Of a stretch of DNA of 64,000 nucleotides, positions 7,312 through 54,335 are shown piece after piece. Positions within the stretch are counted from its first letter, which is position 1. Each line of letters opens with the position of its first letter. The notes beneath the pieces were generated by a model. That model had not been told where the DNA came from and searched no databases. It was given only the letters and a program-made list of their open reading frames with translations. This stretch comes from Dehalococcoides mccartyi (GTDB lineage: Bacteria; Chloroflexota; Dehalococcoidia; GIF9; DYGU01). The stretch lies in the NCBI GenBank assembly GCA_020724525.1, contig DYGU01000003.1:38105-102104 (forward strand), written 5' to 3'. The position numbers and the translations under genes were made by a program.

Positions 7312-7468
7312 GCTTTGCCCATCAATTTTCTCCAGGGCTTTGTCCCGCCCTAATCGTAAACTCTTACCCCCAGCTAAAATTATAGCAGTAAAAGCTACTT
7401 TTCCTTGGTTGACGCTCTGTCTCCATCTCTATTTTGAATATATATTTTACCACTCCCGTCAACTCACC

Positions 7469-8116
7469 CTACAAAGCCGGTTTTAAAACTATTATTTCAG
7501 TGGTTGTCGGTAAATCTTTCGCCGTTAACTCTATCTCGCTTACTTCCAATTTCTTCACATTCTTCTTTCCCCCAATGAAATCATCAACCCCGGCAATAGG
7601 ATAATCACACTTCGGTGTCTTGAAATGCATAGGAATAATGATTTTGGGGATAAGTCTGTCCGCAACTTTAGTCGCTGTTTCAGCATTAATGGTAAAAAAA
7701 CCACCTACTGGGAGAAGCAAAACATCCACCTCACCAATCTCCAGAGCCTGCTCAGGAGTAAGCTCATGACCTAAATCACCCAAATGGCATATTTTTATAC
7801 CATCCACAGAAAAACAGAAAATAGTGTTAGTACCCCGCTGTCTTCCCTTAGCTTCATCATGGTAAGTGGCAATTCCCCTAAACTCAATCCCTTTAACCTT
7901 TTTGCTCCCGCTTCCCTTGACTATCTCTGGCTTACCTTTTATTGCTGAGACATTACTGTGGTCACCATGCCCATGGCTCACTACCACCACATCAGCAGTT
8001 TCATTAATAGGAGAGTAATTAATACCACCACCCACCTCATAAGGGTCAGTGACTATTTTTACCCCCTCCCTGGAGACAATCAAGAAGCAAGCATGACCTA
8101 ACCATTTAAGTCTCAT
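7469..8116 (-). CDS. MBL-fold metallo-hydrolase
   Basis: MRLKWLGHACFLIVS...VVVSHGHGDHS (HxHxDH motif). 215 aa. Confidence 0.75.
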   Translation of the reverse strand: MRLKWLGHACFLIVSREGVKIVTDPYEVGGGINYSPINETADVVVVSHGHGDHSNVSAIKGKPEIVKGSGSKKVKGIEFRGIATYHDEAKGRQRGTNTIFCFSVDGIKICHLGDLGHELTPEQALEIGEVDVLLLPVGGFFTINAETATKVADRLIPKIIIPMHFKTPKCDYPIAGVDDFIGGKKNVKKLEVSEIELTAKDLPTTTEIIVLKPAL

Positions 8117-8269
8117 AATTCACCCCCTTTTTAGCCCCATTATGGATAGCCTCTACCTTCTAAGTATGTCTCCAGCAATAAGCCATAATGGGGACCCCAT
8201 GACAGCTTATTGCTACAGGCAATAGTCTTCGGCTATACGATATCCGTCGTGGGGATTTTTATACCTCCT

Positions 8270-14333: not shown

Positions 14334-15680
14334 ATGTCCGAGGGAATACTTATAAAAGGTGGACGTATCCTTGACCCAGGTCAAGGACTAGATAGAATCG
14401 GTGACCTGCTCATCACCGACGGCAAAATCACCCGGTTCGGAGACAAGGGGGCAATACCGCCGGAAGGTTTCCATGCTCTTGATGCTAATGGCTTAATAGT
14501 CTGTCCCGGTTTTATTGACCTCCACTGCCACCTTCGCGAGCCTGGCTTTGAGGAGAAAGAAACTATTGCCACCGGGACAAGAGCTGCTACCAGGGGTGGT
14601 TTTACTACCATCTGCTGCATGTCCAATACTAACCCACCTTTAGATAACCGGGCTGCCGTTGATTATGTGAAAGCAAAAGCGGAGACACAAGGCACTGTTC
14701 GGGTCTTGCCCATAGGTTGTATTACTAAAGGCAGGAAAGGGGAAGAACTTACGGAAATGGCGGAACTGGCTGAGGCTGGAGTTATTGCCTTCAGTGACGA
14801 TGGAGAACCGGTAGTAAATTCAGCCATTATGTGCCACGCCCTTGATTACGCTTCTGCCTTAGGTCTGATGGTTATTGATCACTGTGAGGACAGGGCTTTG
14901 ACTAATGGTGGTCTTATGAACGAGGGATGGGTGGCAACTCGGCTTGGTCTAAAGGGGATACCAGCAGCCGCTGAAGAAATTATGGTGGCTCGGGATTTAG
15001 CTTTAGCCCGATTGACTAAAGCCAGACTTCATATCGCCCATATCACCACCGAAGGTTCCGTAGACCTCATCCATCGGGCTAAAGAGAAAGGAATTCTGGT
15101 TACTGCTGAAGTTACTCCCCACCACCTGACTTTGACTGAAGACAGAGTCATGGGCTGGCACTGGGGAAAGAATAATATCACCTACGATACTAACGCCAAG
15201 GTAAATCCACCCTTGCGTACTTCTAAGGACATTGATGCCCTAATCAGGGGGGTAAAGCTGGGTATAATTGATGCCATTGCTACTGACCACGCCCCCCACA
15301 CCTTAACGGACAAAATGTGCGAGTTTGGGATAGCTGCCTTCGGTATTAGCGGTCTGGAAACAGCCTTTGGTTGCCTGATGAGTCTGGTACCTGACGGCAA
15401 ACTTGACTTGGTCACTTTAATCTCCAAACTAACGGCTGAGCCTGCCAAGATTATCGGTACAAAATATAGAGAATTGGGCACTCTCAAAATAAGTGCCCCA
15501 GCCGATATTACCCTTTTTGACCCCACAAAAGAATGGATAGTTGACAGCCATAACTTTGCCTCTAAGGGCAAAAACACCCCCTTTGATGGTTACCGGTTCA
15601 AAGGCAAAATAATGGCAACCATATTCGGTGGCAAGATAGTTTATAAAGACGACTCAGTTAAACTCGAAATAAAGCAATGA
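14334..15680 (+). CDS. pyrC: dihydroorotase
   Basis: GFIDLHCHLREPG metal-binding motif. 448 aa. Confidence 0.9.
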   Translation: MSEGILIKGGRILDPGQGLDRIGDLLITDGKITRFGDKGAIPPEGFHALDANGLIVCPGFIDLHCHLREPGFEEKETIATGTRAATRGGFTTICCMSNTNPPLDNRAAVDYVKAKAETQGTVRVLPIGCITKGRKGEELTEMAELAEAGVIAFSDDGEPVVNSAIMCHALDYASALGLMVIDHCEDRALTNGGLMNEGWVATRLGLKGIPAAAEEIMVARDLALARLTKARLHIAHITTEGSVDLIHRAKEKGILVTAEVTPHHLTLTEDRVMGWHWGKNNITYDTNAKVNPPLRTSKDIDALIRGVKLGIIDAIATDHAPHTLTDKMCEFGIAAFGISGLETAFGCLMSLVPDGKLDLVTLISKLTAEPAKIIGTKYRELGTLKISAPADITLFDPTKEWIVDSHNFASKGKNTPFDGYRFKGKIMATIFGGKIVYKDDSVKLEIKQ

Positions 15681-16777
15681 CCAGAAAAACAATTTTAGCC
15701 TTAGAAGACGGCTCAGTCTACGAAGGTTATTCCTTTGGTGCTGAGACTACTACCTATGGCGAAGTCGTCTTCGATACCAGTATGACCGGCTACCAGGAGA
15801 TGCTCACCGATCCCTCCTTTGCCGGGCAAATTTTAGTCGCTACCTATCCCCTTATTGGCAATTACGGCATCAATGATGAAGATTTTGAGTCAAAACAAAT
15901 CCAGGTGAGGGGCTTCGTTGTCCGGGAATATTGTCCTGCACCCAGCCACTGGCAGAGCCAGAAAACTTTGCAGGAGTTTCTTTTAGCCAATGGCATTCCC
16001 GGGATTAGCGGCATTGATACTCGAGCTTTAACCCGCCGCCTTCGTTCAGTAGGAGTGATGATGGGCATTGTCACTTCAGAGATGACAGCAAAAGAAGCCC
16101 TGAAGGAACTTAAGAAATTACCCCGATATGATTCCACTGACTTTGTCAAAGAAGTTACCACCAGTGAGTCATACCACTGGGCATTAGCTTCCTCAAAAGA
16201 TAAGTTGGATGCTACCTTCCAGGTTGTGGTTGTTGACCTGGGTATCAAATATAATATCCTGCGCATCTTGAGCCGTCTTGGTTGCCAGGTAACTGCTGTC
16301 CCATGTACCACCTCAGCCGACGAAATTTTGAGCTTAAATCCTGACGGTATTGTCCTTTCTTCCGGTCCTGGTGACCCGGCTTTGCTCAGCTATATGGAAA
16401 AAACAGTAAAGGGACTCATTACCAAAAAGCCAATTATGGGTATTTGCCTGGGACACCAACTTATTGGGCGCGCCTTTGGGGCTAAGACTTTCAAGCTAAA
16501 ATTCGGTCACCGGGGTGGTAATCATCCCGTCCGTGGCCTTGCCACCGGCAGAGTCCATATTACCGCTCAGAACCATGGCTATGCCGTAGACGCTGATACC
16601 TTGAAAGGTGGTTTAGAAGTCAGCCACATAAATTTAAACGATGGCACCGTAGAAGGTCTGCGACATAAAGAGCTACCCACCCTGTCCATCCAGTACCACT
16701 CCGAAGCCTCTCCCGGACCAAGGGACAATGAATACTTGTTTGAAAGATTTTTGAAGATGGTAAGGGAGAAGAAATGA
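15677..16777 (+). CDS. carA: carbamoyl-phosphate synthase small (glutaminase) subunit
   Basis: CarA N-domain and GATase domain (GICLGHQLI...HRGGNHP). Overlaps the next gene by ATGA. Confidence 0.9.
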   Translation: MTRKTILALEDGSVYEGYSFGAETTTYGEVVFDTSMTGYQEMLTDPSFAGQILVATYPLIGNYGINDEDFESKQIQVRGFVVREYCPAPSHWQSQKTLQEFLLANGIPGISGIDTRALTRRLRSVGVMMGIVTSEMTAKEALKELKKLPRYDSTDFVKEVTTSESYHWALASSKDKLDATFQVVVVDLGIKYNILRILSRLGCQVTAVPCTTSADEILSLNPDGIVLSSGPGDPALLSYMEKTVKGLITKKPIMGICLGHQLIGRAFGAKTFKLKFGHRGGNHPVRGLATGRVHITAQNHGYAVDADTLKGGLEVSHINLNDGTVEGLRHKELPTLSIQYHSEASPGPRDNEYLFERFLKMVREKK

Positions 16778-18054
16778 TTCCCCAAGAAACGGTGGTAAAT
16801 ACAATTTCAGTAGTGAGCAAGGCAATAAAACAGAAAATTGAAGATTCCAGCTGGGATTACCGGGGCGAATTTACCAAAGCGTATACTCATGGGTTCCATT
16901 CTTATCCAGCTATGATGATCCCCCAAGTTGCCCGAAGATTAATACTGGAGTATAGCAACGAGGGGGATTCTTTACTTGACCCCTTTTGTGGTTCGGGAAG
17001 CGTTTTAGTGGAGGCAAAGCTAAATAAGCGTTACTCTTTCGGGATTGACCTAAATCCTCTAGCTATTTTGATTGCACGTGTTAAGACGAGACCTATTGAA
17101 CCTAAGCTACTTACTAAACAATTGTGGAATATTCTAGAAAACTTAAATGCCTTACAAATAGAAGAGATAGAAGAACCAAATTTTTTCAATATTCGTTTCT
17201 GGTTTAAGGAAATGGTCATCTTTCAACTAGCCAAACTTAAAACAATAATAAGCAATATAGAAGCAACCGAGGTGAGAGAATTCTTCCAAGTTGTTTTTAG
17301 CGAAGTTGTAAGATTAAGCTCGAATTCGCGTAGTTCTGAATTCAAATTATATCGTTACCCTTATGAGCGCTTACAAAGCCATGAGCCAGACCCAATAAAA
17401 CTTTTTAAGAACAAAGCCATGGCTAACATAGCCGGAATGGAAAAGTATTACAGCGAAGCTCGTGACCCATACTGGGCTCGACCTATTCTAGGTGACACAA
17501 CAAAACTTACCCAAGTTCTTCAACATCCGATACATATTGTAGTAACCTCTCCACCTTATGGAGATAGTCGCACTACAGTGGCTTATGGTCAATTTTCAAG
17601 GCTCTCTAGCCAGTGGTTAGGACTTGAAGGATATGAAAATGTTGATAAAAAATCTCTTGGCGGAATCTCAGTTGCAACCTTACATTGCTCGTTACCCTCA
17701 GAAACTTTAAGTGAGGTAATCAAGGTCATAGGGAAAGCGGACGAACGCCGGGCTAAAGATGTACTCAGCTTCTATATTGACTTGAATAAAGCTCTAATTG
17801 AAATCGATAAGGTGATGAAAAAGAGGGGAGTACTGTGCTTTGTTATAGGCAACAGGTCTGTCAAAGGAATCAGGTTGCCTACAGATATAATCTTAGCTGA
17901 GTTGCTGACTAATTTGGGGTATTGTCATCTGGCGACGATTATCAGGAACATACCAAGTAAGGCAATGCCTTTACGAAATAGTCCAAGTAATATTGCTGGC
18001 AGAGTATCTGACACAATACACAAAGAAAACATAGTTATTATGAGAAAGGGGTAA
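16774..18054 (+). CDS. SAM-dependent DNA amino-methyltransferase (N4-cytosine or N6-adenine; FxGxG...SPPY)
   Basis: Motif I LLDPFCGSGSVLVEA, then a 180-aa insert, then motif IV VVTSPPYGD. Visibly lower GC than flanking pyr genes. Sits between carA and carB. Confidence 0.65.
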   Translation: MIPQETVVNTISVVSKAIKQKIEDSSWDYRGEFTKAYTHGFHSYPAMMIPQVARRLILEYSNEGDSLLDPFCGSGSVLVEAKLNKRYSFGIDLNPLAILIARVKTRPIEPKLLTKQLWNILENLNALQIEEIEEPNFFNIRFWFKEMVIFQLAKLKTIISNIEATEVREFFQVVFSEVVRLSSNSRSSEFKLYRYPYERLQSHEPDPIKLFKNKAMANIAGMEKYYSEARDPYWARPILGDTTKLTQVLQHPIHIVVTSPPYGDSRTTVAYGQFSRLSSQWLGLEGYENVDKKSLGGISVATLHCSLPSETLSEVIKVIGKADERRAKDVLSFYIDLNKALIEIDKVMKKRGVLCFVIGNRSVKGIRLPTDIILAELLTNLGYCHLATIIRNIPSKAMPLRNSPSNIAGRVSDTIHKENIVIMRKG

Positions 18055-18061
18055 ATGTCCG

Positions 18062-19012
18062 ATGGCTAATGATTACAAACAACCGGTTGCCTTCGAAGAG
18101 CGGGGCGAAACTTTTGTTAACTTAAATTTAGTAAGAAATTCACTTCGAAAATTTGTGCTCGAGCGATTGAATTTTGACCCATCAGAAGCGGAGAAAGTTC
18201 CAGAATATGAAATCCCTAAACTATTCAGGAAAGAAAAGCTATCACTCCAAGATGAAAAAATAATTTACCAAGCTAAACAAAAAATTCCATCCCTCCAAAA
18301 AATCCTTAATGAGGCTATCGAGACCACTAAGAAAACAACACCCAAAATTCTTGCTCCTAGTTACATTAAAGCTCATTTCGGTGAATGCGTAACAGCATTA
18401 GAACCAAGGGCTTACAAAATTTACCTTGACTATGAAGAGAAGGCATTTCTATCAGCGATAGACTCATGGATTTTGCAGAATCAGAGCACTATAAACAGCC
18501 TTATCGAAAAAGGTTTATCACCATCTGATCTGGTTAAAGAAGCTATTAAATTATCTTACCCTTTAGTGCAGAAGCTAGAATTTGAATCTGGCCAGACACG
18601 GAAAGCCAGGGTAGGTAGAACCTTTGAATTAGTAATAGAGTATCTATTAGGTAGAATTGGCATCCCTTGTCAAAAGCCCCGAGGAAAGCAGCATAGGAAG
18701 ATTCTTAAAAGGGTAGATCTTGTCATACCTGACCAGATTACCGCAATCGAGCGTCCTGATAAAGCATATTTCTTATCTTATAAGCGGACACTTAGGGAGA
18801 GGTGGAAGCAAACTATCCCAGAACGAAAGCCAAGTTGGAGGGTTTTCCTCTTAACCCAAGATGAAGAACTAACTGAAGATAAAGCAAAAGAGATTGATGA
18901 ACTTGGTATGATTGTATACGTGAGAGATGAACTGAAAAATAAAGACTACTTAGCTCAAAAACCCTGGGTAAGGAGGTTATCCGATTTACCCAAAGATTTG
19001 AGCTTCTCATAG
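18062..19012 (+). CDS. putative type II restriction endonuclease (PD-(D/E)XK-like core)
   Basis: 316 aa, AT-rich, immediately downstream of the MTase. C-terminal half GRTFELVIEYLLGRIGIP...KRVDLVIPD...SYKRTLRERWKQ resembles an REase catalytic core (D...E.K plus TLRERWKQ-like motif). Family not identifiable without a search. Confidence 0.4.
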   Translation: MANDYKQPVAFEERGETFVNLNLVRNSLRKFVLERLNFDPSEAEKVPEYEIPKLFRKEKLSLQDEKIIYQAKQKIPSLQKILNEAIETTKKTTPKILAPSYIKAHFGECVTALEPRAYKIYLDYEEKAFLSAIDSWILQNQSTINSLIEKGLSPSDLVKEAIKLSYPLVQKLEFESGQTRKARVGRTFELVIEYLLGRIGIPCQKPRGKQHRKILKRVDLVIPDQITAIERPDKAYFLSYKRTLRERWKQTIPERKPSWRVFLLTQDEELTEDKAKEIDELGMIVYVRDELKNKDYLAQKPWVRRLSDLPKDLSFS

Positions 19013-19335: not shown

Positions 19336-22300
19336 ATGCCTAAAATCTCTAAAGTCCTTGTTATTGGTTCAGGACCGATAATTATCGGACAGGCAGCGGA
19401 GTTTGACTATGCCGGCACCCAAGCCTGTAAAGCTCTCCGGGAGGAAGGAGTTACTTCAGTGCTGGTAAATTCAAACCCGGCAACTATTATGACCGATGAA
19501 GGCATTGCCGATATTGTCTATATTGAGCCATTGACCGCAGAGGTCTTAGAACGAATTATTGCTCGAGAGCACCCTGATGGACTGCTGCCAACCCTGGGTG
19601 GGCAGACGGGACTCAATTTAGCCGTGGAATTAGCCGATGCCGGCATCCTCGACAAATATAATGTCAGACTTCTGGGAACACCCCTGGAGACCATCAAAAA
19701 AGCTGAGGAGAGGTCTTTATTTAAGAAATTGCTTATTGACATCGGTGAGCCGGTCCCAGAAAGTGACACCGTTCATTCTGTAGAAGAAGCCCGCCAGTTG
19801 GTAAAGAGGCTCGGACTACCGGTTATTATCCGTCCCTCTTACACCTTGGGTGGTACAGGTGGTGGTATTGCCCACACTATGGAAGAACTTGAGACCATTG
19901 TAGTCAGAGGATTAGCTGCCAGTATGAGCCATGAGGTGTTGGTAGAAAAGTCAGTCCTCGGCTGGAAAGAACTTGAGTATGAGGTGATGCGGGATGGGGC
20001 TGACAACTGCATTACTGTATGTAATATGGAAAACATAGACCCTATGGGCATCCATACCGGCGATAGCATTGTTGTCGCTCCCAGTCAGACCTTAACCGAT
20101 AAAGAATATCAGATGCTCCGCTCAGCCAGCCTCAAGATTATCCGAGCCCTGGGCATTGAAGGTGGTTGCAATATCCAGTTTGCTCTTACCCCTCATCCCA
20201 TAGTTGCCCGAAAATGGGCTCCAGACCAACTAAATGTCAAAAACAGCCAGTATTATGTCATTGAGGTTAATCCACGGGTTAGCCGTAGCTCTGCCTTAGC
20301 CAGCAAAGCTACTGGTTATCCTATTGCCCAGGTTGCTGCTAAAATTGCCATCGGTAAAAGACTGGATGAAATTCCCAATCGGGTTACGGGGAAGACCATG
20401 GCTGCTTTTGAACCAGCCTTAGATTATTGTGTGGTTAAAATCCCCCGCTGGCCCTTTGATAAATTCCCTTCCGGTGAACGTACCATAGGTACCCAAATGA
20501 AGGGAACCGGGGAGGCTATGGCAATTGAAAGAAGCTTCGAAGCTGCCTTCCAAAAAGCTGTCCGCTCCTTAGAATTCGGTAAAAGGTCTCTACTATGGGA
20601 AGATAATAACAGGGCAATGGCTAAAAACCTTAACGACTTTGCCTTACACCCAAACGACCTAAGGTTGTGGGCAATTATGGCAGCCCTAAGACGAGGCTTT
20701 AAACCTGAAGAATTAGCTGAGTACACGGGTATTGACCCCTGGTTCATATACAAATTTCTCAATATTGTTGAGATGGAAAAACGTCTGCTCAAGGAACCCC
20801 TGACTCCAGACCTCCTGTGGCGGGCTAAACGCCTCGGCTTCTCCGATGAACAAATCGGCACTTTGGCTGATAGGTTGCCAGAGCAAGTAAGACAACTCCG
20901 TCATAACTGGCAAATCCGCCCGGTGTATAAAACGGTTGATACTTGTGCTGCTGAATTTGATGCCGAAACGCCATACTTCTATAGCACTTATGAAACGGAG
21001 AACGAAACAGAGCCAATAAAAGAGAAAAAGGCTGTGGTTATCGGCAGTGGTCCAATACGAATTGGACAGGGTATCGAATTTGATTATTCCAGCGTCCATG
21101 CTACCTGGGCACTCCGTGAAGCTGGTATCAAGAGCATCATGGTCAACTCCAATCCGGAGACGGTATCTACCGACTTTGACACCAGTGACCGTCTTTACTT
21201 TGAAGCTTTGGATGAAGAGAGCCTGCGGGATATCCTCGAAAACGAAAGCCATTCACCAGGAAACCCCAACTCCACCCCACCATCTATCGTCCAGTTCGGC
21301 GGGCAAACAGCTATCAATCTAACTGAACCCTTAGCCCGTAGCGGCATGCCCATCCTCGGTTCCAGCGCTGAAACTATAGATATAGCTGAAGACCGTCATC
21401 GCTTTGAAGACTTTCTCAGCCGTTTAGGCATCCCCCAACCCCCAGGTGCTGGAGTAAATTCCTTACAAGCCGGGCTTAATGTAGCTAAACTTTTAGACTA
21501 TCCGGTACTGGTACGACCCAGTTATGTCCTTGGTGGCAGAGCTATGGAAATTGTCTACAATGAAACTGAACTAATTAGATACATGTCTCTTGCCTTAGAA
21601 TTAGACAGTCGACACCCCATATTGATTGATAAATACCTTCAAGGTAAAGAAGTTGAGGTAGATGCCATTGGCGACGGAGAACGGGTTCTCATCCCGGGTA
21701 TAATGGAGCATATAGAGCGAGCTGGCGTCCATAGTGGCGATTCTATCGCCGTCTATCCCGGCTTAAATCTTACCGAAGCTGAAGTAAACACCATTGTTGA
21801 CTACACCATCAAAATTGCCCTGGCTCTCCAAATTAAAGGCTTAATGAATATCCAGTTTGTCATTACACCCCCCACAAGAAATAGTCCGTCTTCCGTGTAT
21901 GTCCTTGAAGTAAACCCTCGTGCCAGCCGAACCGTGCCCTTCATCTCCAAAGTCACCGACATACCTATGGTCCGAATTGCTACTAAGGTAATGTTAGGCA
22001 TCAGTCTCAAAGAACAAGGTTATGAGACCGGCTTGTGGAAAAAGCAAAAACTAATAGCTATCAAGGCGCCCGTATTTTCCATGTCCAAACTGGCGGGCGT
22101 AGACAGCTACCTCGGCCCCGAGATGAAATCAACTGGCGAGGTCATGGGAATTGACTACACCTTTGAGGCTGCACTCGTCAAAGCTCTTTTAGCTTCAGGA
22201 CTTATGCTTCCCAAAAAGGGTAGCCTCCTTCTCAGTATTGCCGACCGCGATAAAGCCGAAGCCCTGCCCGTAATCAAGAAACTCTATTCTAAAGGCTACA

Positions 22301-22635
22301 GACTTTATGCTACTGAAGGTACCGCCATCATGCTCCAGGCAAGTGGTCTTTCTGTAAAAATGACCAGTAAAAAGCTAAGCGAAGGACATCCCAATGTTAT
22401 CGATATTATCAGTGATGGGGCAGTGGACGGGGTAGTAAATACCATTACCGGGGGGCGGGTACCTTTTCGGGATGGATTTTACATCCGGCGAGCCGCTGCC
22501 GAGAAAAGAATACCCTGCTTTACCTCCCTGGATACTTTCCAGGTAGCTGTGGAAGCCCTTGTTAATGGGGGACAATTCTTCACCATCCAAGCCTTGAGAG
22601 AATACTTTGGGGATTCCCTCCTGTCATTGCGGTGA
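19336..22635 (+). CDS. carB: carbamoyl-phosphate synthase large subunit
   Basis: 1099 aa, duplicated ATP-grasp halves ([31 protein letters not shown]... and [21 protein letters not shown]...) plus MGS-like C-domain. Confidence 0.95.
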
Positions 22636-44012: not shown

Positions 44013-45449
44013 TCACCCTTCTCTTACCGGTCGGCATTTCCAAAAATAATTGTGGAAGCCACCGAACTGATGAAATTTGCGTAATACCATCTCCACAGGC
44101 ATGTCCACCTTGACCTCTTCAGCCTCACAGTCCGTCATCAGACAATAGATTCTGGCTCCTCCCTCAGATTCAACCACCGTCTGCACTACTGGTGGCTGGG
44201 GTGTACCCGCCAAGTAGTCCAAGGAGAAAGTGAAGACCTTTCCTCTTTTATCGGTAAGTCTTACCTCTTCATATTCATCTTTAGACTGGCAACCGTAGCA
44301 AACCCGCTGTATAGGAAAGGTGACTAAGCCGCACCGTTTGCATTTACTGCCATGACCCGCCAAGACCCAGTTCCGTGTCCGCCACACTACCGTCGCTGAA
44401 GGAAAAAGACGGACAAATTCTTCCGACTGGGCCACCAGTTGCCGGAAAAGTAAATACTTCTCATAAGCAGGCAAGGCTCTTTTTGTTGTTAGATATCCTT
44501 CTATATCCCGACGACTCTTAACCCCTTCAATTTCTTGGGTCGCTTGCAAAAGGAAAGCATCACTGCCATCACCGTAACTGGCTAAAAGAATCTTATCACC
44601 AAGTTTGGCTTCACTTAAAGCAGAAGCTAACATAAGTAAAGGATGAGCCACCCCCGTGTTGCCCACACTATCCAGCAGCGAATCTTGCAGCTGAGAATCG
44701 GAAAGTCCCAAGTCCCGTGCCAGCTCCCGATGGCTTCTGCCCTCAGGGGCATAAAATACAGCCTTCGTCAGGTCACCAGTAGCTAAGTTATTTTCTTTCA
44801 TAACCTTCAATATAGCCTCTTTCATATTCCTGGCATAACCATAGCTCAGCACCCAACGGTCTTCCCAGGAACGGACAAAGGTATCTGTGTCCAGCCTCCA
44901 GACATCAATTATATCGTCAGTAGAAGATACCATCTTCTCTACGTTAGCGACAGTTTGAGAATTCCCAATAAGGATAGCCGCTGCCCCATCACCAAAAGCC
45001 TGCTCTTGTACTGACTGAGGGTAGCCAAGACGACAATCAGCAGCTACCACCAAAATATTCCGGGCTGACCCGTTACTGACTGTGTCCAGAGCTAATCTCA
45101 GAGCATTGGTACCACTCCGCAAGGAATTGGCAAAGTCAATAGTAATAATATCCCGACGCAAATCCACGGCTGCCGCCACTATACTGGCACACTGCTTCTC
45201 TTTATAAGGGGAAGTTGTGGAGACGAAAAATAAGCCGTCAACTTCGTCTCGGTTAATCCCACCAAGGCAGTTAATAGCTGCTTGTACTGCCATAGTTATG
45301 CTGTCTTCATCGTGATTAGCTACACTTCTTTCACCTCCCATAGACCGTCCACCCCAAGCCTTGGCTATCAAATCCCGGCTCAACCGATAATAGGGCACAT
45401 AAACACCAAAAGAAACAATACCTGCTTTCAAGCTTCTCCTTTCTATCAA
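44013..45449 (-). CDS. HMG-CoA-synthase-like protein fused to C-terminal Zn-ribbon/OB-fold (DUF35) domain
   Basis: N-terminal GIVSFGVYVPYYRL (HMGCS/KAS-III-like) and C-terminal CKRCGLVTFPIQRVCYGCQS zinc ribbon plus OB fold. 3-nt gap to the thiolase gene. Confidence 0.75.
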   Translation of the reverse strand: MIERRSLKAGIVSFGVYVPYYRLSRDLIAKAWGGRSMGGERSVANHDEDSITMAVQAAINCLGGINRDEVDGLFFVSTTSPYKEKQCASIVAAAVDLRRDIITIDFANSLRSGTNALRLALDTVSNGSARNILVVAADCRLGYPQSVQEQAFGDGAAAILIGNSQTVANVEKMVSSTDDIIDVWRLDTDTFVRSWEDRWVLSYGYARNMKEAILKVMKENNLATGDLTKAVFYAPEGRSHRELARDLGLSDSQLQDSLLDSVGNTGVAHPLLMLASALSEAKLGDKILLASYGDGSDAFLLQATQEIEGVKSRRDIEGYLTTKRALPAYEKYLLFRQLVAQSEEFVRLFPSATVVWRTRNWVLAGHGSKCKRCGLVTFPIQRVCYGCQSKDEYEEVRLTDKRGKVFTFSLDYLAGTPQPPVVQTVVESEGGARIYCLMTDCEAEEVKVDMPVEMVLRKFHQFGGFHNYFWKCRPVREG

Positions 45450-45605
45450 GGCAAAACTGTAATAGTTTAAGTCTAACTTCCACCTAAATCAAGCCTCCGG
45501 TTGTAAAGTGTTTATCAACAATTTATTTTCAATGTAGTGCGACCCCCCATGAAGTGAAGGGGTGGCAATCTCATTGCTTAGTAATCCCTACTTTCATTTC
45601 TACTT

Positions 45606-46337
45606 GTGCCAAAGTATAATTTTGGTATGGAAAAGCTTATTGAGGGAACTGCCGCCCTCGGGCTAAAACTTACCCCACAGCAACAGGAACAATTCCATTA
45701 CTACTACCAAGAACTGATAAAATGGAATAAGAAGGTAAACCTTACTCGTATAGTCGACTACAATGAAGTCCAGGTTAAACACTTTGTGGACTCCTTGACA
45801 GTGACCTTAGCCCTCAGCCAAGTACCCAAGGGCTTAAAAGTTATAGATGTTGGCACCGGAGCCGGTTTACCCGGTCTTCCCCTTAAGATAGTTTTTAACC
45901 ACATTAAACTGGTGCTTCTGGAATCCGTAGCCAAAAAGACAGCTTTCCTTAAACATCTTATTAAACAATTAGAGCTAAAAGAGGTAGAAGTAGTCACTGG
46001 ACGGGCTGAGGAAATAGCTCATCAGCCCCAATACCGGGAGCAATTCTTAGTAGTTCTCTCCCGGGCTGTGGCTAAGTTACCCGCCCTGGCTGAACTGACC
46101 TTACCCTTCTGCCATCTCAATGGTCGGGTTATTCTGCTTAAAAAGGGTCAAATCAAACAGGAAGTTGACCAAGCAATTAAAGCTATAGACACTTTAGGGG
46201 GGAGCCTTCAGGAAATAAAGAAAATAGACCTGCCTGGCCTTTCTGACCGGAGATACCTGGTAATTATTGACAAGATTCGACTGACACCGCTAAATTACCC
46301 TCGTCATCCCGGAGTACCGGCACGACGACCAATCTAA
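45606..46337 (+). CDS. rsmG: 16S rRNA (guanine527-N7)-methyltransferase
   Basis: LIKWNKKVNLTRI...VIDVGTGAGLPGLPLKI (GidB SAM-binding motif). The start may be the internal ATG at 45627. Confidence 0.85.
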   Translation: MPKYNFGMEKLIEGTAALGLKLTPQQQEQFHYYYQELIKWNKKVNLTRIVDYNEVQVKHFVDSLTVTLALSQVPKGLKVIDVGTGAGLPGLPLKIVFNHIKLVLLESVAKKTAFLKHLIKQLELKEVEVVTGRAEEIAHQPQYREQFLVVLSRAVAKLPALAELTLPFCHLNGRVILLKKGQIKQEVDQAIKAIDTLGGSLQEIKKIDLPGLSDRRYLVIIDKIRLTPLNYPRHPGVPARRPI

Positions 46338-46368
46338 AAGCGGCTGAAATTAAAAGGAGGTGAGAAAA

Positions 46369-46557
46369 ATGTGGCATCGCCGACGCTTCTGGAGTTTCCG
46401 TTTTGGTTTTCCACCCTTCGGCTTCTTCATCTACGGTCCCAGACCCTTCCCCAGCCGTGAAGAATATCTGCACATGCTTGAAGAATATAAAAAGGAACTG
46501 GAGGAAGAGCTAAAGGAAGTAGAAAAAGAGATAGAGGAGTTGAAGAAGGGCTCTTAG
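46369..46557 (+). CDS. hypothetical small protein (aromatic/Gly/Pro-rich N-terminus, acidic coiled-coil C-terminus)
   Basis: AAGGAGG SD 7 nt before ATG 46369. MWHRRRFWSFRFGFPPFGFFIYGPRPFPSREEYLHMLEEYKKELEEELKEVEKEIEELKKGS. Confidence 0.4.
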   Translation: MWHRRRFWSFRFGFPPFGFFIYGPRPFPSREEYLHMLEEYKKELEEELKEVEKEIEELKKGS

Positions 46558-46566
46558 ACTTATTGA

Positions 46567-47818
46567 TTATAGCCTGACCCAACCCTGCCGGAGCAGGTTA
46601 TAAAGCCCGACTCCTACAACGAAGGCAGCCAGCATATTCCACATGGCTAATCCCGCTGTAACTATCATTACATAGAGGTCCTTCTTCTCAGGACTAATAT
46701 CCCAGGCTGTGACTGCCAGCTCCGCCCCAGCAAAGAACAGGATCACTCCCAGGATCGCCGCTGGGAACATCCCAAAAAATACATTTACTGAGTCGCTAAA
46801 AAAGATAGCCAGCACGAGGATGAGAGAGCCGAGAATCACCAATGCCCCGCCATACCTCCGGCCCCATGGCACAACGGGACACCACCAACCAGAGGTGATA
46901 AAAGGTTCATAAGTCCCGTAGTGATGGAGAGCTTACGTTCCGAGACTCTGCGATGAGGAAAAAGTTCATTATTTTCAGCAGCGGTAGCAATGATAGCATT
47001 CCCCAGGGTGAGCAGCACCTGGGGAAGTGCCAAGAACAAAGCTCCCATAGCCATATCCTGCCAGGTGAGGTTACCCAAAGCAAACCTCGGAAGGTGGAAA
47101 CGGAGACTCACTTGTGAAAGCTCTTTGACTAAACCGGTGTCCTACCACAAGGCTACCACTCCCCCTAATACTAATAACACAAACATAGCTGGTATCCTGG
47201 GGCTGGACAGAAGGAAAAGGGTGAGAACCATAGCCATACCAGCTAACCACGGGGTAGGTAACATCATCTTCACCCCCTCAGCTATGAAAAGAAACCCAAA
47301 ACCAAGCATTATACTCCACACCACAGGTTTAGCTGCCAGCTTTGCCACTACTCCTATCAGATTAGTCACTCCAAGCACTAGCCAGACTAAACCAGTAACT
47401 ATACCAGCCCCATAGAGCATCCCAGGCGTTATAGCGCCCGCCTGGACAATGGCACTGGCGCCAATAGCTTTCATGGGTTGGACAGGCACAGGCGTCTTGT
47501 AAAAAAGTCCACAGCAATCTTGGCAACCCCAAAGGGCAGGAGCACTCCAAGGGGATCCAGCTTCATTACCGAAATATAAGCCACTACAAAAGGAATGAGA
47601 GTGCCGAGGTCGCCAAAAGCCCTCGCTCATTCTGTAAGAGAGTAAACATTGCCAGGCTTGACTTCCCCGATGGCAGACGGACGTTGCTCCAAGGGTATCA
47701 TAGACCTCAGACGGCGACGCCAGGCAGAAAATCGTTGGCTTCCCCAGCCCATGCTTTCCCCCAGGCAACCATTATAAGGCAATGTCAACGATTGAGCCAA
47801 AACTACGTGTTGCGTCAA
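46567..47818 (-). pseudogene. MOT1/SulP-related putative molybdate/sulfate transporter, disrupted (in-frame TGA plus at least 3 frameshifts)
   Basis: Family motifs are spread over three reading frames: AFGDLGTLIPFVVAYISVMKL (preceded directly by in-frame TGA), ...PMKAIGASAIVQAG..., ...GGVPLCHGAGGMAGHW then RRYGGALVILGSLILVL... Four overlapping partial ORFs (46567..46872, 46836..47111, 47142..47768, 47627..47818). Confidence 0.5.
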
Positions 47819-48080
47819 AATAAACTGTTACCCCATACCTCAACACATTCCGTCCAACCACTGGCTACATCCACTGAGGTGCACTCTGCTTTCATGTTAC
47901 ATGTTACCTTTTTACTGGGAGTGTACCACTTGAGTTCACTTTTCAGCTTTTAACAGTCCACTTTTGAATTTTATTTAACAATTTCAATTCCGACTATTGA
48001 TAGAACGGAATCCATTTATTAGACTTATTAGACACTGCGGTTGACAACTTGTAATTCATTAGGCGAAAGGAGGGAGTGTT

Positions 48081-49448
48081 ATGGTTGATAACTCTTTGTC
48101 GCCACACGGAGGCAAATTGGTGGAGAGAGTTATGGAGCCAGAGAAGGCGCGGGAGGGAAGCCTTGCCGAGCCTTATTTGCTTGAGGAGACAAGCATGACT
48201 ATCCTGGTAATTGGCGGTGGTATTACAGGTATGACCGCTGCTCTTGGGGCAGCTGATGCTGGTTATAATGTTGTGCTTATTGAGAAAAATGCTGAGCTTG
48301 GCGGCTGGGCTAAAAAACTACACAAACAGTTACCACAAAGCTATCCTTTTGAAACCCTTGAGGAGGTAAATGTTAAATCCATTATTGAAAAGGTCAAAAC
48401 CCACCCCAATATTGAGGTTTTGACTTCCTTTGAAATAGAGGAAATGGAAGAGATAGCCTCAAAAGGTAAGATTACTCGACCTTCAGATGGCAAAATAGCA
48501 AAAAGGGTGGCTTTTATCCAATATGCCGGCTCACGTGAGCCAAACCACTTACCTTATTGTTCATCATTTTGCTGTCTTACATCATTAAAGCAGGCTCTTT
48601 ATGTAAGAGAAAAGAACCCTCATTCAATGGCATATATTCTCTATAAAGATATGAGGACACCAGCTCAATACGAACTTTCTATAAGAAAATACAGGCTGAC
48701 CCGGGTATTATGCTCACCAAAGGTGAAGTAACTGGAGTCAGTGAGGTAACTAATGGTAATCTGTTTGTTGATGCTAAAGACTGTACACCCAAGGGCATGG
48801 GACCAGACTTGTCCAGAAGTTTTCCTCCAGAGGTGTACTGCTTGTAAGAGGTGTACTGAAGAATGTCCCTTTGGCGCAGTAGATGAAGATGAAAAGGCTA
48901 TTCCTTACCATAAGATTACTCGCTGCCGTAGATGCGGTACTTGTCTCGGCTCCTGTTCTGAAAGGATTATATCATTTAAAGATTTCCACATTGATATGAT
49001 AAGTTCAATGTTCAGATCAGTAGATTTACCAGAAGAGGAGTTGACACTTATAGGGCTTGTGTGTGAAAACGATGCTTATCCCGCCCTGGATACAACAGCA
49101 ATAAAGCGGCAAAAGCTTCATCCGGCAATAAGGTTTGTCCCAGTTAGATGTCTTGGCACATTGAATTTAGTCTGAATTTCTGATGCCCTAGCCAGAGGCA
49201 TTGATGGTATGATATTACCTGGCTGTAAGTTCGGAGAAAACTACCAGTGTCATTTTATTAAAGGAAGTGAACTTGCTGATTATAGACTTGGAAAACTTCA
49301 TGAGACACTGGACAGGCTTAAGCTTGAATCCGAAAGGGTCCAGTTAGTGCAGCTTTCAATAACAGAATATGATAAGTTGCCACAGATATTGAATGAGTTT
49401 GTCCAAAGGCTTGAGGAGATAGGTCTAAATCCGTTTAAGGGATTGTAA
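48081..49448 (+). pseudogene. HdrA-like FAD/FeS oxidoreductase fused to MvhD-like domain, disrupted (2 frameshifts plus in-frame TGA)
   Basis: ILVIGGGITGMTAALGAADAGYNVVLIEKNAELGGW and RVAFIQYAGSREPNHLPYCSSFCC (HdrA). After the frameshift, FYKKIQADPGIMLTKGEVTGVSEV. Then the ferredoxin insert CTACKRCTEECPFGAV...CRRCGTCLGSCS. Then the MvhD-like VRCLGTLNLV-TGA-ISDALARGIDGMILPGCKFGENYQCHF. Confidence 0.55.
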
Positions 49449-49465
49449 ATGTAGGAGTTTTTAAA

Positions 49466-50725
49466 ATGAATATTCTGAGAGGAGTTTTTGAATTTCTTAA
49501 GATGGGATCAGTTGCCCAGGCGAAGTGGGAGTATGAGGTTTCGACGAACATCATAAGGAATCGAAAGAAACTCCTGATCCTTATGATTTTGCTCCTGCCA
49601 ATACTATTCACGGTGGTTGCCGAAGCAGCCGACATACTTGGAGGCAAGGCTGCTTATGCCCCTCTCTCCTATTCAACGACTGTTTTTCTCGTTTCAATGG
49701 CCATAGGTCTGATAGCAGGACTTATTACAGGATGTATCGGGGCTGGTGGAGGCTTTATTATAATCCCCGCCCTGATGGCTGCCGGTGTCAGAGGTATTAT
49801 GGCAGTTGGGACAGATGTTTTCCATATATTTGCCAAAGCAATAATGGGCACTACTGTCCACAGGAAATTGGGAAATGTCTGTGTAACTTTAGCTATGGCA
49901 TTTGTCATAGGTTCTGTCGGAGGTGCCACTTTAGGTGGCTATATAAACAGGACAGTCTATGACATTGACCCAGTTCTGAGTGATGCCTTTATCAGCTTAG
50001 TCTATGCGGCAATACTCCTTTTTCTGGGCTCCTATGCCTTTTATGACTTCATTAAATTAAGAAAGGTAAGTAAGTCTGTAAGTGCCCATGATGGGGGTGA
50101 ACCTGTTCAACCGCTTACAACCACAGCCCTGGCATTAAAATTACAGGCTTTAAAGCTTTCCCCCAGAATTAAGTTTGATGAAGATTTCGTGCCTGGAGGC
50201 AGAAGACTACCCGCCCTTGTTGTAGTCATTGGTGGCTTTTTTGTCGGAGTTATTGCAGCAATAATGGGGGTCGGTGGTGGGTTTATAACCTTTCCCATGT
50301 TCGTCTATCTCTTCGGCATATCCACAATGACGACTGTAGGGACGGATATCCTCCAGATAATCTTTACTGCCGGTTATGCCTCCATATCGCAATATGCAAT
50401 CTACGGCTATGTTTTCTATACTCTGGCTATGGGATTGCTTTTAGGTTCGCTTATCGGTGTCCAAGTAGGAGCACTGACAACAGAGGTGATAAGGGGGATA
50501 GATATTAGAGGATTTTATGCTTGTTGTATCCTTGCCGGGTTTATAAACAGGGCGAGTGTGCTTCCTAAACAGTTCACAGAACTCGGCTATATAGAACTAT
50601 CAAAACCCGTGGCATCAGGTATAGAGGCTTTTGGATTCTTTGCTTTCTGGATAATACTTGCCATTTTTTGTATCTGGGTTCTCAGCAAGTTTTTTGGAAA
50701 CATTAAGGCACTAAGGGAAGAATAG
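49466..50725 (+). CDS. TSUP family (TauE/SafE-like) membrane transporter
   Basis: Two 4-TM repeats each with GAGGGFIIIP / GVGGGFITFPM motifs. 419 aa. AT-rich. Confidence 0.8.
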   Translation: MNILRGVFEFLKMGSVAQAKWEYEVSTNIIRNRKKLLILMILLLPILFTVVAEAADILGGKAAYAPLSYSTTVFLVSMAIGLIAGLITGCIGAGGGFIIIPALMAAGVRGIMAVGTDVFHIFAKAIMGTTVHRKLGNVCVTLAMAFVIGSVGGATLGGYINRTVYDIDPVLSDAFISLVYAAILLFLGSYAFYDFIKLRKVSKSVSAHDGGEPVQPLTTTALALKLQALKLSPRIKFDEDFVPGGRRLPALVVVIGGFFVGVIAAIMGVGGGFITFPMFVYLFGISTMTTVGTDILQIIFTAGYASISQYAIYGYVFYTLAMGLLLGSLIGVQVGALTTEVIRGIDIRGFYACCILAGFINRASVLPKQFTELGYIELSKPVASGIEAFGFFAFWIILAIFCIWVLSKFFGNIKALREE

Positions 50726-50727
50726 GT

Positions 50728-51441
50728 ATGATAATAAGACATAAAAAATCCTTTGTTCTAGGGATTATCCTCACCTTTTCATTCTTTATACTGTTATTTC
50801 TCATATTTTTACCTATATTTGGCGAGGGTAAAAATGGTCTCGAGTTTGCTGATGAAATGTTTAACAAACTGGCTAAAGGCTCATCCTATTTTATCCCTGA
50901 GGTTATAAAAAGTAACGAGAAGTTTATCGGTAAAACGTTTACTACCAGTATAAGGCTTGACACGCCTGAGGATGCTGAAAAAACAGCAAAATTATTTACT
51001 ATTGCTGGGGCAATGGTAGAAGTTAAGGGAGCCGAATTAAAGATAGCGGGGGACTTGGGTAAGACCCTTAATGGAGCTCTACAAGATGCCGATGTCATGT
51101 ACCATAATAAAGGGGCTGAGATTTCAGGTTTATACGGATATGATGAGAAGGCTGTAATGAAAAACTGGTGGCAAGCACTAAGCCAGATGGAAAAAACATT
51201 TGAGAAGGAAAAGATGATTGCCGAGGCTAAGATTGTATCCGATGTAAAAAAGAAGGCTATTGAGACAGCCTATAACTACTATAACATTGATGCCGTAAAG
51301 ATTAAAGATAAAATTGGTCTTACGACATTTATGCTAACATTCTATGTAGGCTATACAATTTGGTGGGGATTTGCTGTGCTTTATCTGCTGGATGGGCTGG
51401 GGCTTAGCGCGAAGAAGGCAAAGGTAAGGAAAGAGGTCTAA
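50728..51441 (+). CDS. hypothetical membrane protein (N- and C-terminal TM helices)
   Basis: 237 aa, 3 nt after the TSUP gene. No recognisable family. Confidence 0.45.
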   Translation: MIIRHKKSFVLGIILTFSFFILLFLIFLPIFGEGKNGLEFADEMFNKLAKGSSYFIPEVIKSNEKFIGKTFTTSIRLDTPEDAEKTAKLFTIAGAMVEVKGAELKIAGDLGKTLNGALQDADVMYHNKGAEISGLYGYDEKAVMKNWWQALSQMEKTFEKEKMIAEAKIVSDVKKKAIETAYNYYNIDAVKIKDKIGLTTFMLTFYVGYTIWWGFAVLYLLDGLGLSAKKAKVRKEV

Positions 51442-51892
51442 GCTTACGAGTGATTTCACTGGTTCTGTCTAAAAATGGTAGTTAAGGCTGAAGATAAAGT
51501 TGAATATATTGTGCCCGATTACGATTTCATCAAAAGATAATCCAGTCGGGGGGAGAATCCTTAAAGAAGTGCTTCCAGTATGGTAATTGCTCAGTGATTT
51601 GCTCCTTATCTCCTCAAAAAAGCCCTTCCCGAGGAAAGAAATGATATGGGCTTAGTGGGGATTGAAGGACAGGCTCTTCGAAGACCCTGATGTCTGGGTA
51701 TGCCACAATTGCTAAGAAATTATGGCATTGTATATTTTGCTCTTCCAAGCTTTTTGGCAAAATCCTTCTCCAGGTTCACATATCTGCTTTTTGCTTTAGT
51801 TACCCCCCATTTTCCTGCCTTTTTTACCAATCACTTATACTCAAGCCCAGATTGTCTTTTTTATAGTCACTGGTTTAGTATCTGTCATTGTT

Positions 51893-52408
51893 ATGACTTC
51901 ACTCCTAAGATTTTGGAAAAATATCAGCCAATTCGAGAGTAAGTCAGCTTCAACACAGATGTATTCTGGAGGTAGTGCTGAGCTTGTAACTCAGAAAGAT
52001 TTCTTAACGAGCTTTGTTTCGTCTTTGGTTGAAATATTATTACATAGCAATTTCAAAAAGTGTGGAATAAATAAAGGCAATTATTTACCGCATTTTCTCA
52101 TATTCTACGGATTTGTCGCCCTATTCGTTACCTGTTTTGGTGCTCCAATTTATTCACTAACCGGGGCAGGGTTACCGCTTCCTCTGACTAACCCACTTAA
52201 AATTCTTGGAATTATGGGGGATTTAACACTTTTCGTTGACTTGACTCTTGTTATCTACAGCCGGCTATTTAGAAAAGGTGAGACGGCTAAAGCAACTTAT
52301 TATGACTGGTTCTTTATAGCGTTGCTTTACCGAATCTTAGCCATGACCTATGTCAAGCAAATAGGAAGAGAGATAGCAACTGGAGTCTCTGTAGGAAAGG
52401 GGATATAA
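51893..52408 (+). CDS. hypothetical polytopic membrane protein, possibly a gene fragment
   Basis: 171-aa ORF with 3-4 TM helices preceded by about 450 nt of broken short ORFs. Low-confidence coding call. Confidence 0.3.
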   Translation: MTSLLRFWKNISQFESKSASTQMYSGGSAELVTQKDFLTSFVSSLVEILLHSNFKKCGINKGNYLPHFLIFYGFVALFVTCFGAPIYSLTGAGLPLPLTNPLKILGIMGDLTLFVDLTLVIYSRLFRKGETAKATYYDWFFIALLYRILAMTYVKQIGREIATGVSVGKGI

Positions 52409-52451
52409 CCAAGCTATGAAAATATTGGCTCTGGGACAGGCTCTCCCTCTC

Positions 52452-52883
52452 CTAAGTAGATACCTCTTCCTTAACTGAAACAGCTATTTTATACAAGATG
52501 GTGAGTATAAGTAACCCCAGCGCCCAGACACCAAGTGTGATCAATACCTCAGGCGCTGTTGGCACATATTCCAATATTTCACCTATAGGTGAAGGAATAA
52601 ACCCCGGCACAATCAGACCGAGCCCCTTATCTATCCATATAGAAACAAAGACTGCGGCGTAGGCTGTGGCTTCTTCTTTTATCTCAAAGCCCAGTTTTTC
52701 AATTATTCTAAAAAGCCTCTTTTCAGAAACCTCACTATTATCAAATTCTATCCAAGCTTCACCGTTTCGTTCATCAATATTACTGTCGACTACCCCCTCC
52801 AAGACATCGACTTCGGTTTCAATCAAAGCTTTATCATTTTGAGAGCAGATGCCCTCTATTTGAAATTTAATTTCTGTCAACAT
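52452..52883 (-). CDS. degenerate HMA-like domain plus 2 TM helices, possible truncated remnant of a P1B-type ATPase N-terminus
   Basis: KFQIEGICSQNDKALIETEVDVLEGVVDSNIDERNGEAWIEFDNSEVSEKRLFRIIEKLGFEI follows the HMA fold pattern but lacks the CxxC metal site (ICSQND). Two TM helices follow. 143 aa. Confidence 0.35.
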   Translation of the reverse strand: MLTEIKFQIEGICSQNDKALIETEVDVLEGVVDSNIDERNGEAWIEFDNSEVSEKRLFRIIEKLGFEIKEEATAYAAVFVSIWIDKGLGLIVPGFIPSPIGEILEYVPTAPEVLITLGVWALGLLILTILYKIAVSVKEEVST

Positions 52884-53359
52884 ACTTTTCCCTGCTTATA
52901 GTAATTACTTATGAAAAAGTTTGGTGACCTTTAAAATTTCTTCTATCATTTACTGTTTTCTTTTCTCATTCTTTGTTCCCATTGCTTTCTTAAAGCAAGG
53001 GTTAAGATGATTTTCCATTAGCATTTGATGGGCGGATTTTAAAAGTCCAATAATTGCTAAATTTTGCTGCCTGATATCAAAGCAGCATTGGTTGTCTTGG
53101 ACATTTGGATAATTTTAGCAATTAGGCTTTGGGCTTGTTAAAATTGATACGGTTTTTTCTTTTTGGGTAGACATACTTTTAAAAAATGTAGCATGTCGAA
53201 GAGCTAACATTTCCCCTAGGGATTACCCATAAAAAGAACTATCTTGTCTCTGAAAGTCCGTCAATACGGTCAGTGCCCATAGCAACTGTGGTAGGGACAC
53301 CTGTAAGATAAATCATGGCGGCACTTCTCCTGGCAGTGGTGACCTTTCTCCAAATCCAT

Positions 53360-53386
53360 TGACTTGCTTAAATAATGTTTATAATA
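53360..53386 (+). promoter_or_regulatory. candidate sigma70 promoter for pdxST (TTGACT-N15-TATAAT)
   Basis: TTGACT at 53360..53365 and TATAAT at 53381..53386 (the spacer is 15 to 17 nt depending on register), about 65 nt upstream of the pdxS ATG within a 567-nt AT-rich noncoding stretch. Confidence 0.35.
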
Positions 53387-53450
53387 GTAAAATATAAACA
53401 AAAGGGCGCGGTAGGCGCTCAATTTTAATCACGAATACTAAAGGGCACTA

Positions 53451-54335
53451 ATGATAGAGAAGGGAACCTGGAAAGTTAAAGCCGGATTAGCCCAGATGCT
53501 TAAAGGGGGGGTGATTATGGATGTAGTCACCCCGGAGCAGGCAAAAATTGCTGAAGAAGCAGGGGCTTGTGCGGTTATGGCACTGGAAAGAGTGCCCGCA
53601 GATATACGAGCCACTGGGGGGGTAGCCCGAATGGCTGACCCAGCCATAATTTTGGCAATAATGGAAGCAGTCACTATCCCGGTTATGGCTAAATGCCGCA
53701 TCGGTCATTTTGTTGAAGCTCAAGTACTGGAAGCGCTGAGGGTTGATTTTATTGACGAGTCGGAAGTGCTAACTCCGGCTGATGAAAGCCATCATGTCTG
53801 GAAACACGACTTTAAAGTCCCCTTCGTCTGTGGTTGCCGTGACCTGGGCGAAGCCTTACGCCGAATTGCTGAAGGAGCGGCTATGATTCGAACAAAAGGA
53901 GAGGCCGGCACCGGTAATATTGTTGAAGCCGTTAGACATATGCGAGCTGTTCAAGATGGTATCCGCAAACTCCAAGCTCTCCCTGTAGATGAATTAGCTG
54001 CTGAAGCTAAGGCTCTTGGTGCCCCCTTAGAATTGGTAATAGAAGTTCACAAGACAGGAAAACTGCCTGTTGTCAATTTTGCTGCTGGTGGTATAGCCAC
54101 CCCCGCCGATGCTGCTTTAATGATGCAACTGGGGGCTGATGGGGTCTTCGTCGGTTCCGGGATCTTTAAATCGGCTAACCCCGAAGTCAGGGCTAAAGCT
54201 ATTGTAAAAGCTACTACTCACTACCGCGACCCGGCTATTATTGCTGAAGTATCGAAAGCTTTAGGTGCCCCCATGCCCGGGCTGGACATAAAGACTATCC
54301 CACCACAAGAGCTATTGGCGCCTCGGGGCTGGTAA
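53451..54335 (+). CDS. pdxS: pyridoxal 5'-phosphate synthase lyase subunit
   Basis: [36 protein letters not shown]... canonical PdxS. 294 aa. Confidence 0.95.

Follow-up and report, generated by a model that had tools for sequence, protein, structure and literature searches.

The DNA at positions 48081-49448 (+ strand) of the window, the whole 64-kb stretch that was analysed, is derived from qmoB and, judging from sequence comparison, is probably a non-functional relic of a canonical sat-aprBA-qmoABC operon lying within an eroding sulfate-reduction locus. QmoABC is the quinone-interacting membrane-bound oxidoreductase which supplies APS reductase with electrons during dissimilatory sulfate reduction; its flavo-iron-sulfur subunit QmoB is HdrA-like and has an MvhD-like domain at the C-terminus. 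The position of the remnant among other dead genes of sulfur metabolism argues for ordinary gene decay, and against both a selenoprotein and recoding.

Identity of the remnant and its lesions

The protein search, run in a space of 5.8 billion sequences, returned 4433 matches for the remnant. The best were QmoB proteins of about 721 aa from Thermodesulfovibrionia/Nitrospirota MAGs, with 75% identity to the top match (P0001), and no relative closer than 75% was found among the proteins and loci searched. The top 120 of the 4433 matches were 600-730 aa long, and many of them are named "quinone-modifying oxidoreductase subunit QmoB" by JGI. In tblastn qmoA gave only weaker cross-matches to the remnant. 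Pfam searches of the stitched translation detected the start of an FAD/NAD-binding Rossmann fold (NAD_binding_8/FAD_oxidored, aa 41-81), a 2x[4Fe-4S] ferredoxin (Fer4_9, aa 252-297) and a complete FlpD/MvhD domain (aa 325-449, E 4e-35), in the order expected for the QmoB lineage, with MvhD/FlpD at the C-terminus. Together with three-frame translation, these domains bear out the first-pass annotation, which had described an N-terminal FAD-binding segment, a ferredoxin insert and an MvhD-like domain. Its designation of the gene as an HdrA-like/MvhD-like oxidoreductase is correct at the superfamily level, because the remnant and an intact QmoB (P0009) both match HdrA2 and VhuD below the family cutoffs; it is too generic for a gene that its best matches and context identify as qmoB. 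NCBIfam is without a qmoB model, and HdrA2 (E 3e-71) and VhuD (E 3e-15) were its best models for the remnant, the same two as for P0009. The HdrA2 score was 241 bits for the remnant and 401 bits for the intact protein, both under the curated cutoff of 1100 bits. A methanogen-type HdrA/HdrA2 was rejected as the identity of the gene on this score, and on the genomic context and best matches, which indicate QmoB.

The gene order in two related loci (L005 and L006) is sat-(DUF6955)-aprB-aprA-qmoA-qmoB-qmoC, and in 80 further metagenomic qmoB loci every contig that was long enough showed (adk)-sat-aprBA-qmoABC-(hppA), with qmoC directly after qmoB. The remnant occupies the corresponding place, being preceded by the 5' end of sat and followed by a qmoC remnant, with aprBA and qmoA deleted, so that nearest relatives, domain order and operon position all fit a qmoB origin. 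In L006 (ERZ25039515 contig_23858) we also noted that aprB/aprA are present at 6160-8482 as short fragments of 108, 141, 106, 175 and 99 aa, while qmoABC and sat look intact; this may reflect decay of apr or a low-quality long-read assembly.

The lesions were mapped from three-frame translation, tblastn with P0001, an MSA with 109 homologues and nucleotide comparison with relatives (Table 1). Three ORF pieces are present on the + strand, at 48081-48731 (216 aa), 48753-49175 (140 aa) and 49209-49448 (79 aa), and stops at 48731, 48847 and 49175 break translation of the remnant. Homology to P0001 runs through frame 1 at 48144-48689, frame 3 at 48677-48781 and frame 1 again at 48780-49439. The 5' end comes from another gene: aa 44-69 of the L005 Sat matched 48081-48155 with 65% identity (tblastn, E 2.6e-5), and the only PDB match of the sat-derived peptide, although weak (E 1.7), was to the N-terminus of ATP sulfurylase (aa 7-29) at the equivalent position. 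Since the start codon and the first approximately 29 codons derive from sat, the ORF is a sat'-'qmoB chimera generated by deletion. At the junction the window reads AGCCTTGCCGAGCC, compared with AAACTTGCCAGC in sat and GACTTTCCTGAGCC in qmoB. The deletion, whose size of about 5.7 kb was estimated from gene spacing in L005, took most of sat, DUF6955, aprB, aprA, qmoA and about 120 codons of qmoB encoding the N-terminal domain.

Table 1. Features of the qmoB remnant and of the adjoining genes and relics, in positions of the window
Feature	Position	Strand	Basis
MOT1/SulP-like (PF16983) anion transporter pseudogene, at least 2 frameshifts and 2 in-frame stops	46567..47700	-	Pfam, three-frame reading
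RBS AGGAGG ahead of retained sat start codon	48068..48073	+	sequence
sat-derived 5' end, ATG and about 29 codons, MVDNSLSPHGGKLVERVMEPEKAREGSLA	48081..48167	+	tblastn, nucleotide comparison
Junction of ~5.7-kb deletion, sat codon ~30 / qmoB codon ~120, CTTGCC/CTTTCC microhomology	48162..48167	+	nucleotide comparison
qmoB segment A, frame 1, FAD-binding GGGxxG region	48168..48673	+	tblastn, P0001 aa 47-284 including 56-residue gap
56-codon in-frame deletion in segment A	~48444-48449	+	tblastn gap, MSA with 109 homologues
Cys to Tyr (TGC to TAT), invariant Cys of FIQCAGSR	48522-24	+	MSA; unique to window sequence
qmoB segment B, frame 3, FYKKIQADPGIMLTKGEVTGVSEVTNGNLFVDAKD	48674..48781	+	tblastn, P0001 aa 281-315, 77% identity
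Frameshift, one T lost from T-run; ancestral GAA xTx TTC TAT, now GAACTTTCTAT	48676..48678	+	nucleotide comparison
Junction of 137-codon (+2 nt) deletion, P0001 aa 316-452 lost, return to frame 1	48781..48782	+	tblastn, MSA
qmoB segment C, frame 1, ferredoxin and MvhD/FlpD to native stop	48783..49448	+	P0001 aa 453-672, 75%, E 2e-109
Pro to Ser after last cluster Cys	48957-59	+	homologue comparison
In-frame TGA, from TGG at invariant Trp	49173..49175	+	alignment, 109 homologues
Leu to Pro in segment C	49218-20	+	homologue comparison
Intact tauE/TSUP-family membrane protein gene, starts 17 nt past qmoB stop behind GGAG	49466..50725	+	Pfam TauE, E 6e-37
Intact gene of 237-aa membrane-anchored partner of tauE	50728..51441	+	synteny
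qmoC pseudogene, frameshift near 51620, in-frame stops, lost Cys, truncated 3' end	51519..52408	+	tblastn, NCBIfam
Chimeric, intact 143-aa ORF, degenerate HMA (aa 3-68) and last 72 residues of DsrP	52452..52883	-	NCBIfam, protein search

A frame-aware alignment had been proposed by the first-pass annotation as a check; carried out with tblastn and the MSA, it placed the lesions and established homology to QmoB. The frame breaks, deletions and TGA found in this way agree with the multi-lesion pseudogene that had been described. Both of the frameshifts assigned to it (about 48652..48680 and 48753..48810) could be located; the first is the loss of a single T, after which 36 codons in frame 3 are still QmoB-like, and the second turned out to be the junction of the 137-codon (+2 nt) deletion. 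Likewise, the long central HdrA region reported as missing is indeed absent, through two separate deletions of 56 and 137 codons, to which the loss of about 120 N-terminal codons has to be added. Three changes at invariant residues (C147Y, P292S and W364stop) were each unique to the window sequence. The uninterrupted frame of about 700-720 aa of a functional QmoB was not found; there are three pieces, which carry a frameshift and a TGA and lack approximately 313 residues. Despite four indel events, the qmoB stop is still in frame with the sat ATG; the chance of this is roughly 1 in 27 as judged post hoc, and it is mildly odd for pure decay.

A chimeric joining of sat to qmoB combined with homopolymer errors might be suspected in a MAG whose proteins were met only in JGI, NCBI, GEM and Logan, and one of the lesions falls in a T-run; however, homopolymer errors do not make large deletions, and we consider an artefact of sequencing or assembly highly unlikely. 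JGI Ga0246235_100075 matched the sequence from 46301 to 52500 with 100% identity and no gaps; that contig and the window may come from one and the same assembly. In Logan, the assembly of another run (SRR13164376) was identical over 46301-52493 with every junction included, SRR5011273 covered the 48781 junction and the TGA, and SRR28264343 covered the region downstream of the TGA only. Because other assemblies contain identical DNA, the lesions are real. Outside this region, about 45 long ORFs of the window are intact and have housekeeping functions (pyr operon, molybdopterin synthesis, thiC, pdxST, mnmA, rnhB and others), so sequence quality is not the cause. Error was rejected on these two grounds, and the damage is local and biological.

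The in-frame TGA and the frameshift site

The in-frame TGA was visible in the three-frame translation where the first-pass annotation had placed it, and it stands at a column that is Trp in all 109 full-length homologues, as part of the motif RC(L/M)GS.N.VW(I/V)SDAL. In the nearest intact gene (L007) the codons are GTA TGG ATT, compared with GTC TGA ATT in the window, which amounts to a single change from TGG to TGA. The first-pass annotation had held that the TGA lies at a non-cysteine position and that selenocysteine recoding is unlikely, and it had suggested looking for a SECIS hairpin downstream of 49175. The Trp column confirms the former point. No SECIS-like fold was found around or downstream of the TGA, where the 96 nt from 49165 to 49260 gave z = 0.12 relative to shuffles, and Rfam returned no match at E <= 1 over 45000-54000. 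The 64-kb window contained no tRNA-Sec, its only tRNAs being tRNA-Gln and tRNA-Pro. TGA is the stop of 15 of the 45 long ORFs in the window, including carB (19336-22635), in agreement with the earlier remark that carB ends in TGA and that this codon is a normal stop here. Selenocysteine insertion and other recoding of the TGA, including TGA-to-Trp, were rejected in view of the invariant Trp, the lack of a SECIS and the common use of TGA as a stop in the window. The TGA is a plain nonsense mutation.

The frameshift site gave a similar result. Homologues read GAA-TTA-TTC-TAC in one frame throughout, and programmed ribosomal frameshifting was rejected since GAACTTTCTAT does not follow the X XXY YYZ pattern of slippery heptamers and the homologues are uninterrupted there. 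The production of a shortened functional HdrA/MvhD-type protein by recoding of the TGA, as selenocysteine or otherwise and possibly with programmed frameshifting, would be in keeping with the coincidence of the reading frames on either side of the shifted stretch. In such a product the N-terminal domain and 193 internal residues would nevertheless be missing, as would a conserved Cys, and its synthesis would demand recoding at a Trp column, of a codon that ends intact ORFs nearby, next to no SECIS-like structure and downstream of a site that is not slippery; we regard it as extremely improbable. VhuD and HdrA of Methanococcales include selenoproteins, in which Sec stands in place of Cys, whereas in the qmoB remnant TGA replaces Trp.

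Neighbouring relics and an intact transporter pair

Decay was observed across 46.5-52.9 kb of the window. The transporter pseudogene is divergent from the sat start, and MFS_MOT1 was detected on three consecutive ORF fragments in different frames, with one domain split between 46836-47111 and 46567-46872. No homologue of this MOT1-like transporter was found in the related loci retrieved. SulP-family transporters of the PF16983 type are present in the genomes of several sulfate reducers, and one was detected in a proteomic study of Desulfobacula toluolica; according to Marietou et al. transporters of this type most likely carry molybdate (PMC5840216). Between rsmG and the transporter pseudogene lies a 65-aa ORF (46360-46557, + strand) with a sub-threshold match to DUF5320 (24.6 bits, cutoff 27 bits).

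On the other side of the qmoB remnant, QmoC of both L005 and L006 mapped onto the qmoC pseudogene in two frames (tblastn). The NCBIfam qmoC model NF038018 matched it with E 1e-23 and 84 bits, compared with a cutoff of 300 bits; CYQCSTC has become CFQYGNC and the C-terminus is missing. Unlike in most of the longer related loci, no hppA follows, and tblastn found no adk or hppA remnants near the locus. The DsrP part of the chimeric ORF farther downstream corresponds to positions 275-346 of the 346 in the NCBIfam profile NF045798 (E 3.8e-26). Database matches of the chimera were confined to its C-terminal half (NrfD, PF03916), and in the HMA part GICSQN replaces the usual GMxCxxC metal-binding motif. 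This HMA-'dsrP fusion, which appears to be unique to this genome, points to a second large deletion in which dsrMKJO and most of dsrP would have gone. Since the transporter, qmoC and the dsrP tail are relics as well, the unit of decay is the whole sulfate-reduction locus, and their parallel decay, as viewed in the 64-kb window, suggests that this copy of the sulfate-reduction pathway has been lost, or is being lost, in the lineage. Elsewhere in the window, between carA (15677-16777) and carB, an N6_N4_Mtase DNA methylase and an EcoRII-C-like endonuclease are encoded at 16774-19012 (+ strand); this pair inside the pyrimidine operon is probably an inserted restriction-modification cassette.

The two genes between the qmoB and qmoC remnants are intact. 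The tauE protein aligned over its full length (1-419) to 80 homologues, and the gene for the 237-aa protein, which matched no Pfam or NCBIfam family, was found directly downstream of tauE in 78 of 80 GTDB loci (L008-L087), often in two copies. The hosts of the pair are Nitrospirota, Desulfovibrionales, Syntrophobacteraceae and Magnetobacterium. In the 80 tauE loci no qmo, apr or sat gene lay within 10 kb of the pair, and the pair was found between qmoB and qmoC in none of these 80 loci and in none of the 80 qmoB loci. Its position in the former qmoB-qmoC gap is lineage-specific.

This arrangement raises the possibility that the relic has been kept as a leader, the sat promoter and ribosome-binding site and the qmoB remnant now driving the tauE/237-aa pair, which would be compatible with a dead QmoB protein; translation of the last small ORF may also aid expression of the pair. 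The intact, full-length state of both genes and their placement exactly in the former intergenic gap, seen in none of 160 related loci, are consistent with this, as are a 17-nt spacer that holds only GGAG with no room for a promoter, the lack of a terminator-like site on the + strand from 48081 to 49466, and the frame shared by the sat ATG and the qmoB stop. However, the three stops in the remnant end translation well before tauE, and promoter-like matches in the region (18) were no more frequent than in shuffles (13.7 +/- 3.0), and promoters may also lie inside the remnant; a weak sigma-70-like match at 47997-48025 (9 of 12) in the promoter scan was likewise no better than shuffles. Retention as a leader therefore seems rather unlikely. 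Still more doubtful, in our estimation, is the fuller scenario in which a Thermodesulfovibrionia-related lineage would be at an early stage of losing dissimilatory sulfate reduction and would have co-opted the sat'-'qmoB chimera as the promoter-bearing leader of a newly inserted tauE/237-aa pair. If it were true, a former sulfate-respiration promoter would now drive an anion transporter, possibly one for sulfite or sulfonate.

Mode of decay and relation to known systems

For the preferred reading, a non-functional qmoB relic in an eroding locus, we propose the following order of events. The ancestor would have carried a canonical (adk)-sat-(DUF6955)-aprB-aprA-qmoA-qmoB-qmoC-(hppA) operon, in which one deletion of about 5.7 kb would have joined sat codon ~30 in frame to qmoB codon ~120, leaving the ribosome-binding site and ATG of sat in front of a headless qmoB. 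Later lesions of qmoB, listed here in no particular order, would comprise the 56-codon deletion, the loss of 1 nt from the T-run, the 137-codon (+2 nt) deletion and the change of TGG to TGA, along with substitutions at invariant residues, from Cys to Tyr in FIQCAGSR and from Pro to Ser after the last cluster Cys. The decay of qmoC, the MOT1/SulP-like transporter and dsrP would have proceeded in parallel. A role of mobile elements in the rearrangements was rejected, as neither the deletions nor the tauE insertion had IS-like direct or inverted repeats beside them.

In the C-terminal 220 aa, Tajima's relative-rate test detected no acceleration (13-23 versus 20-26 changes, all p > 0.07), although this finding, taken by itself, would equally be expected of a sequence that is still constrained, and only 8 lineage-unique changes were found at conserved columns. 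These two results suggest that the decay has been dominated by indels and is probably recent when set against the 25% by which the nearest sequenced relatives differ. Evidence for long-standing decay from substitution load (18 violations in 170 conserved columns versus 1.2 in homologues) was withdrawn because it is clade-biased, intact close relatives showing 10-15 violations at the same columns, compared with 17 for the window sequence.

The locus has a bearing on how genomes are read. Automated pipelines call three ORFs with FAD, Fer4 and FlpD domains here, as well as qmoC-like and DsrP-like fragments, so a marker-based survey could score the genome as Qmo, Hdr or Dsr capable even though the locus is dead; this calls for caution in marker-gene-based metabolic inference for Nitrospirota MAGs. 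The region also offers a clean natural case of pathway erosion in Nitrospirota, with large deletions, in-frame chimeras and an oddly placed, intact transporter pair adjoining them, and it bears on the route by which sulfate reduction is lost within Thermodesulfovibrionia.

The remnant resembles the QmoB of sat-aprBA-qmoABC operons, found in sulfate reducers and some sulfur oxidisers, in its 75% identity over the ferredoxin and MvhD part, in the order of its FAD, ferredoxin and FlpD/MvhD domains and in the canonical order of the flanking sat and qmoC remnants. It differs from intact QmoB in lacking about 313 of about 721 residues (the N-terminal ~120, then 56, then 137) and in having one frameshift, one nonsense codon, the Cys to Tyr change in FIQCAGSR and a start codon taken from sat. 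In contrast to the canonical qmo operon, aprBA and qmoA are absent, and tauE and the 237-aa gene lie between qmoB and qmoC. The HdrA2/HdrA-MvhD fusions and VhuD of methanogens belong to the same superfamily as the remnant, whose scores are far below the cutoffs of those families.

When sulfate reduction is not in use, its genes can be lost through mutation, as has been described (Hillesland et al. 2014, as cited in bioRxiv 10.1101/197269), and internal stops and frameshifts served as the criterion for dsr/apr pseudogenes in bioRxiv 10.1101/197269. Such loss is already established, and the window is a further example of it that involves no new mechanism or recoding event. As in the known case, inactivating lesions cluster in sat, apr, qmo, dsr and transporter genes and the neighbouring housekeeping genes are intact. 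Whereas the known case is an experimental Desulfovibrio line, the window belongs to a natural Nitrospirota MAG, and here multi-kb deletions dominate and have produced in-frame chimeras (sat'-'qmoB and HMA-'dsrP).
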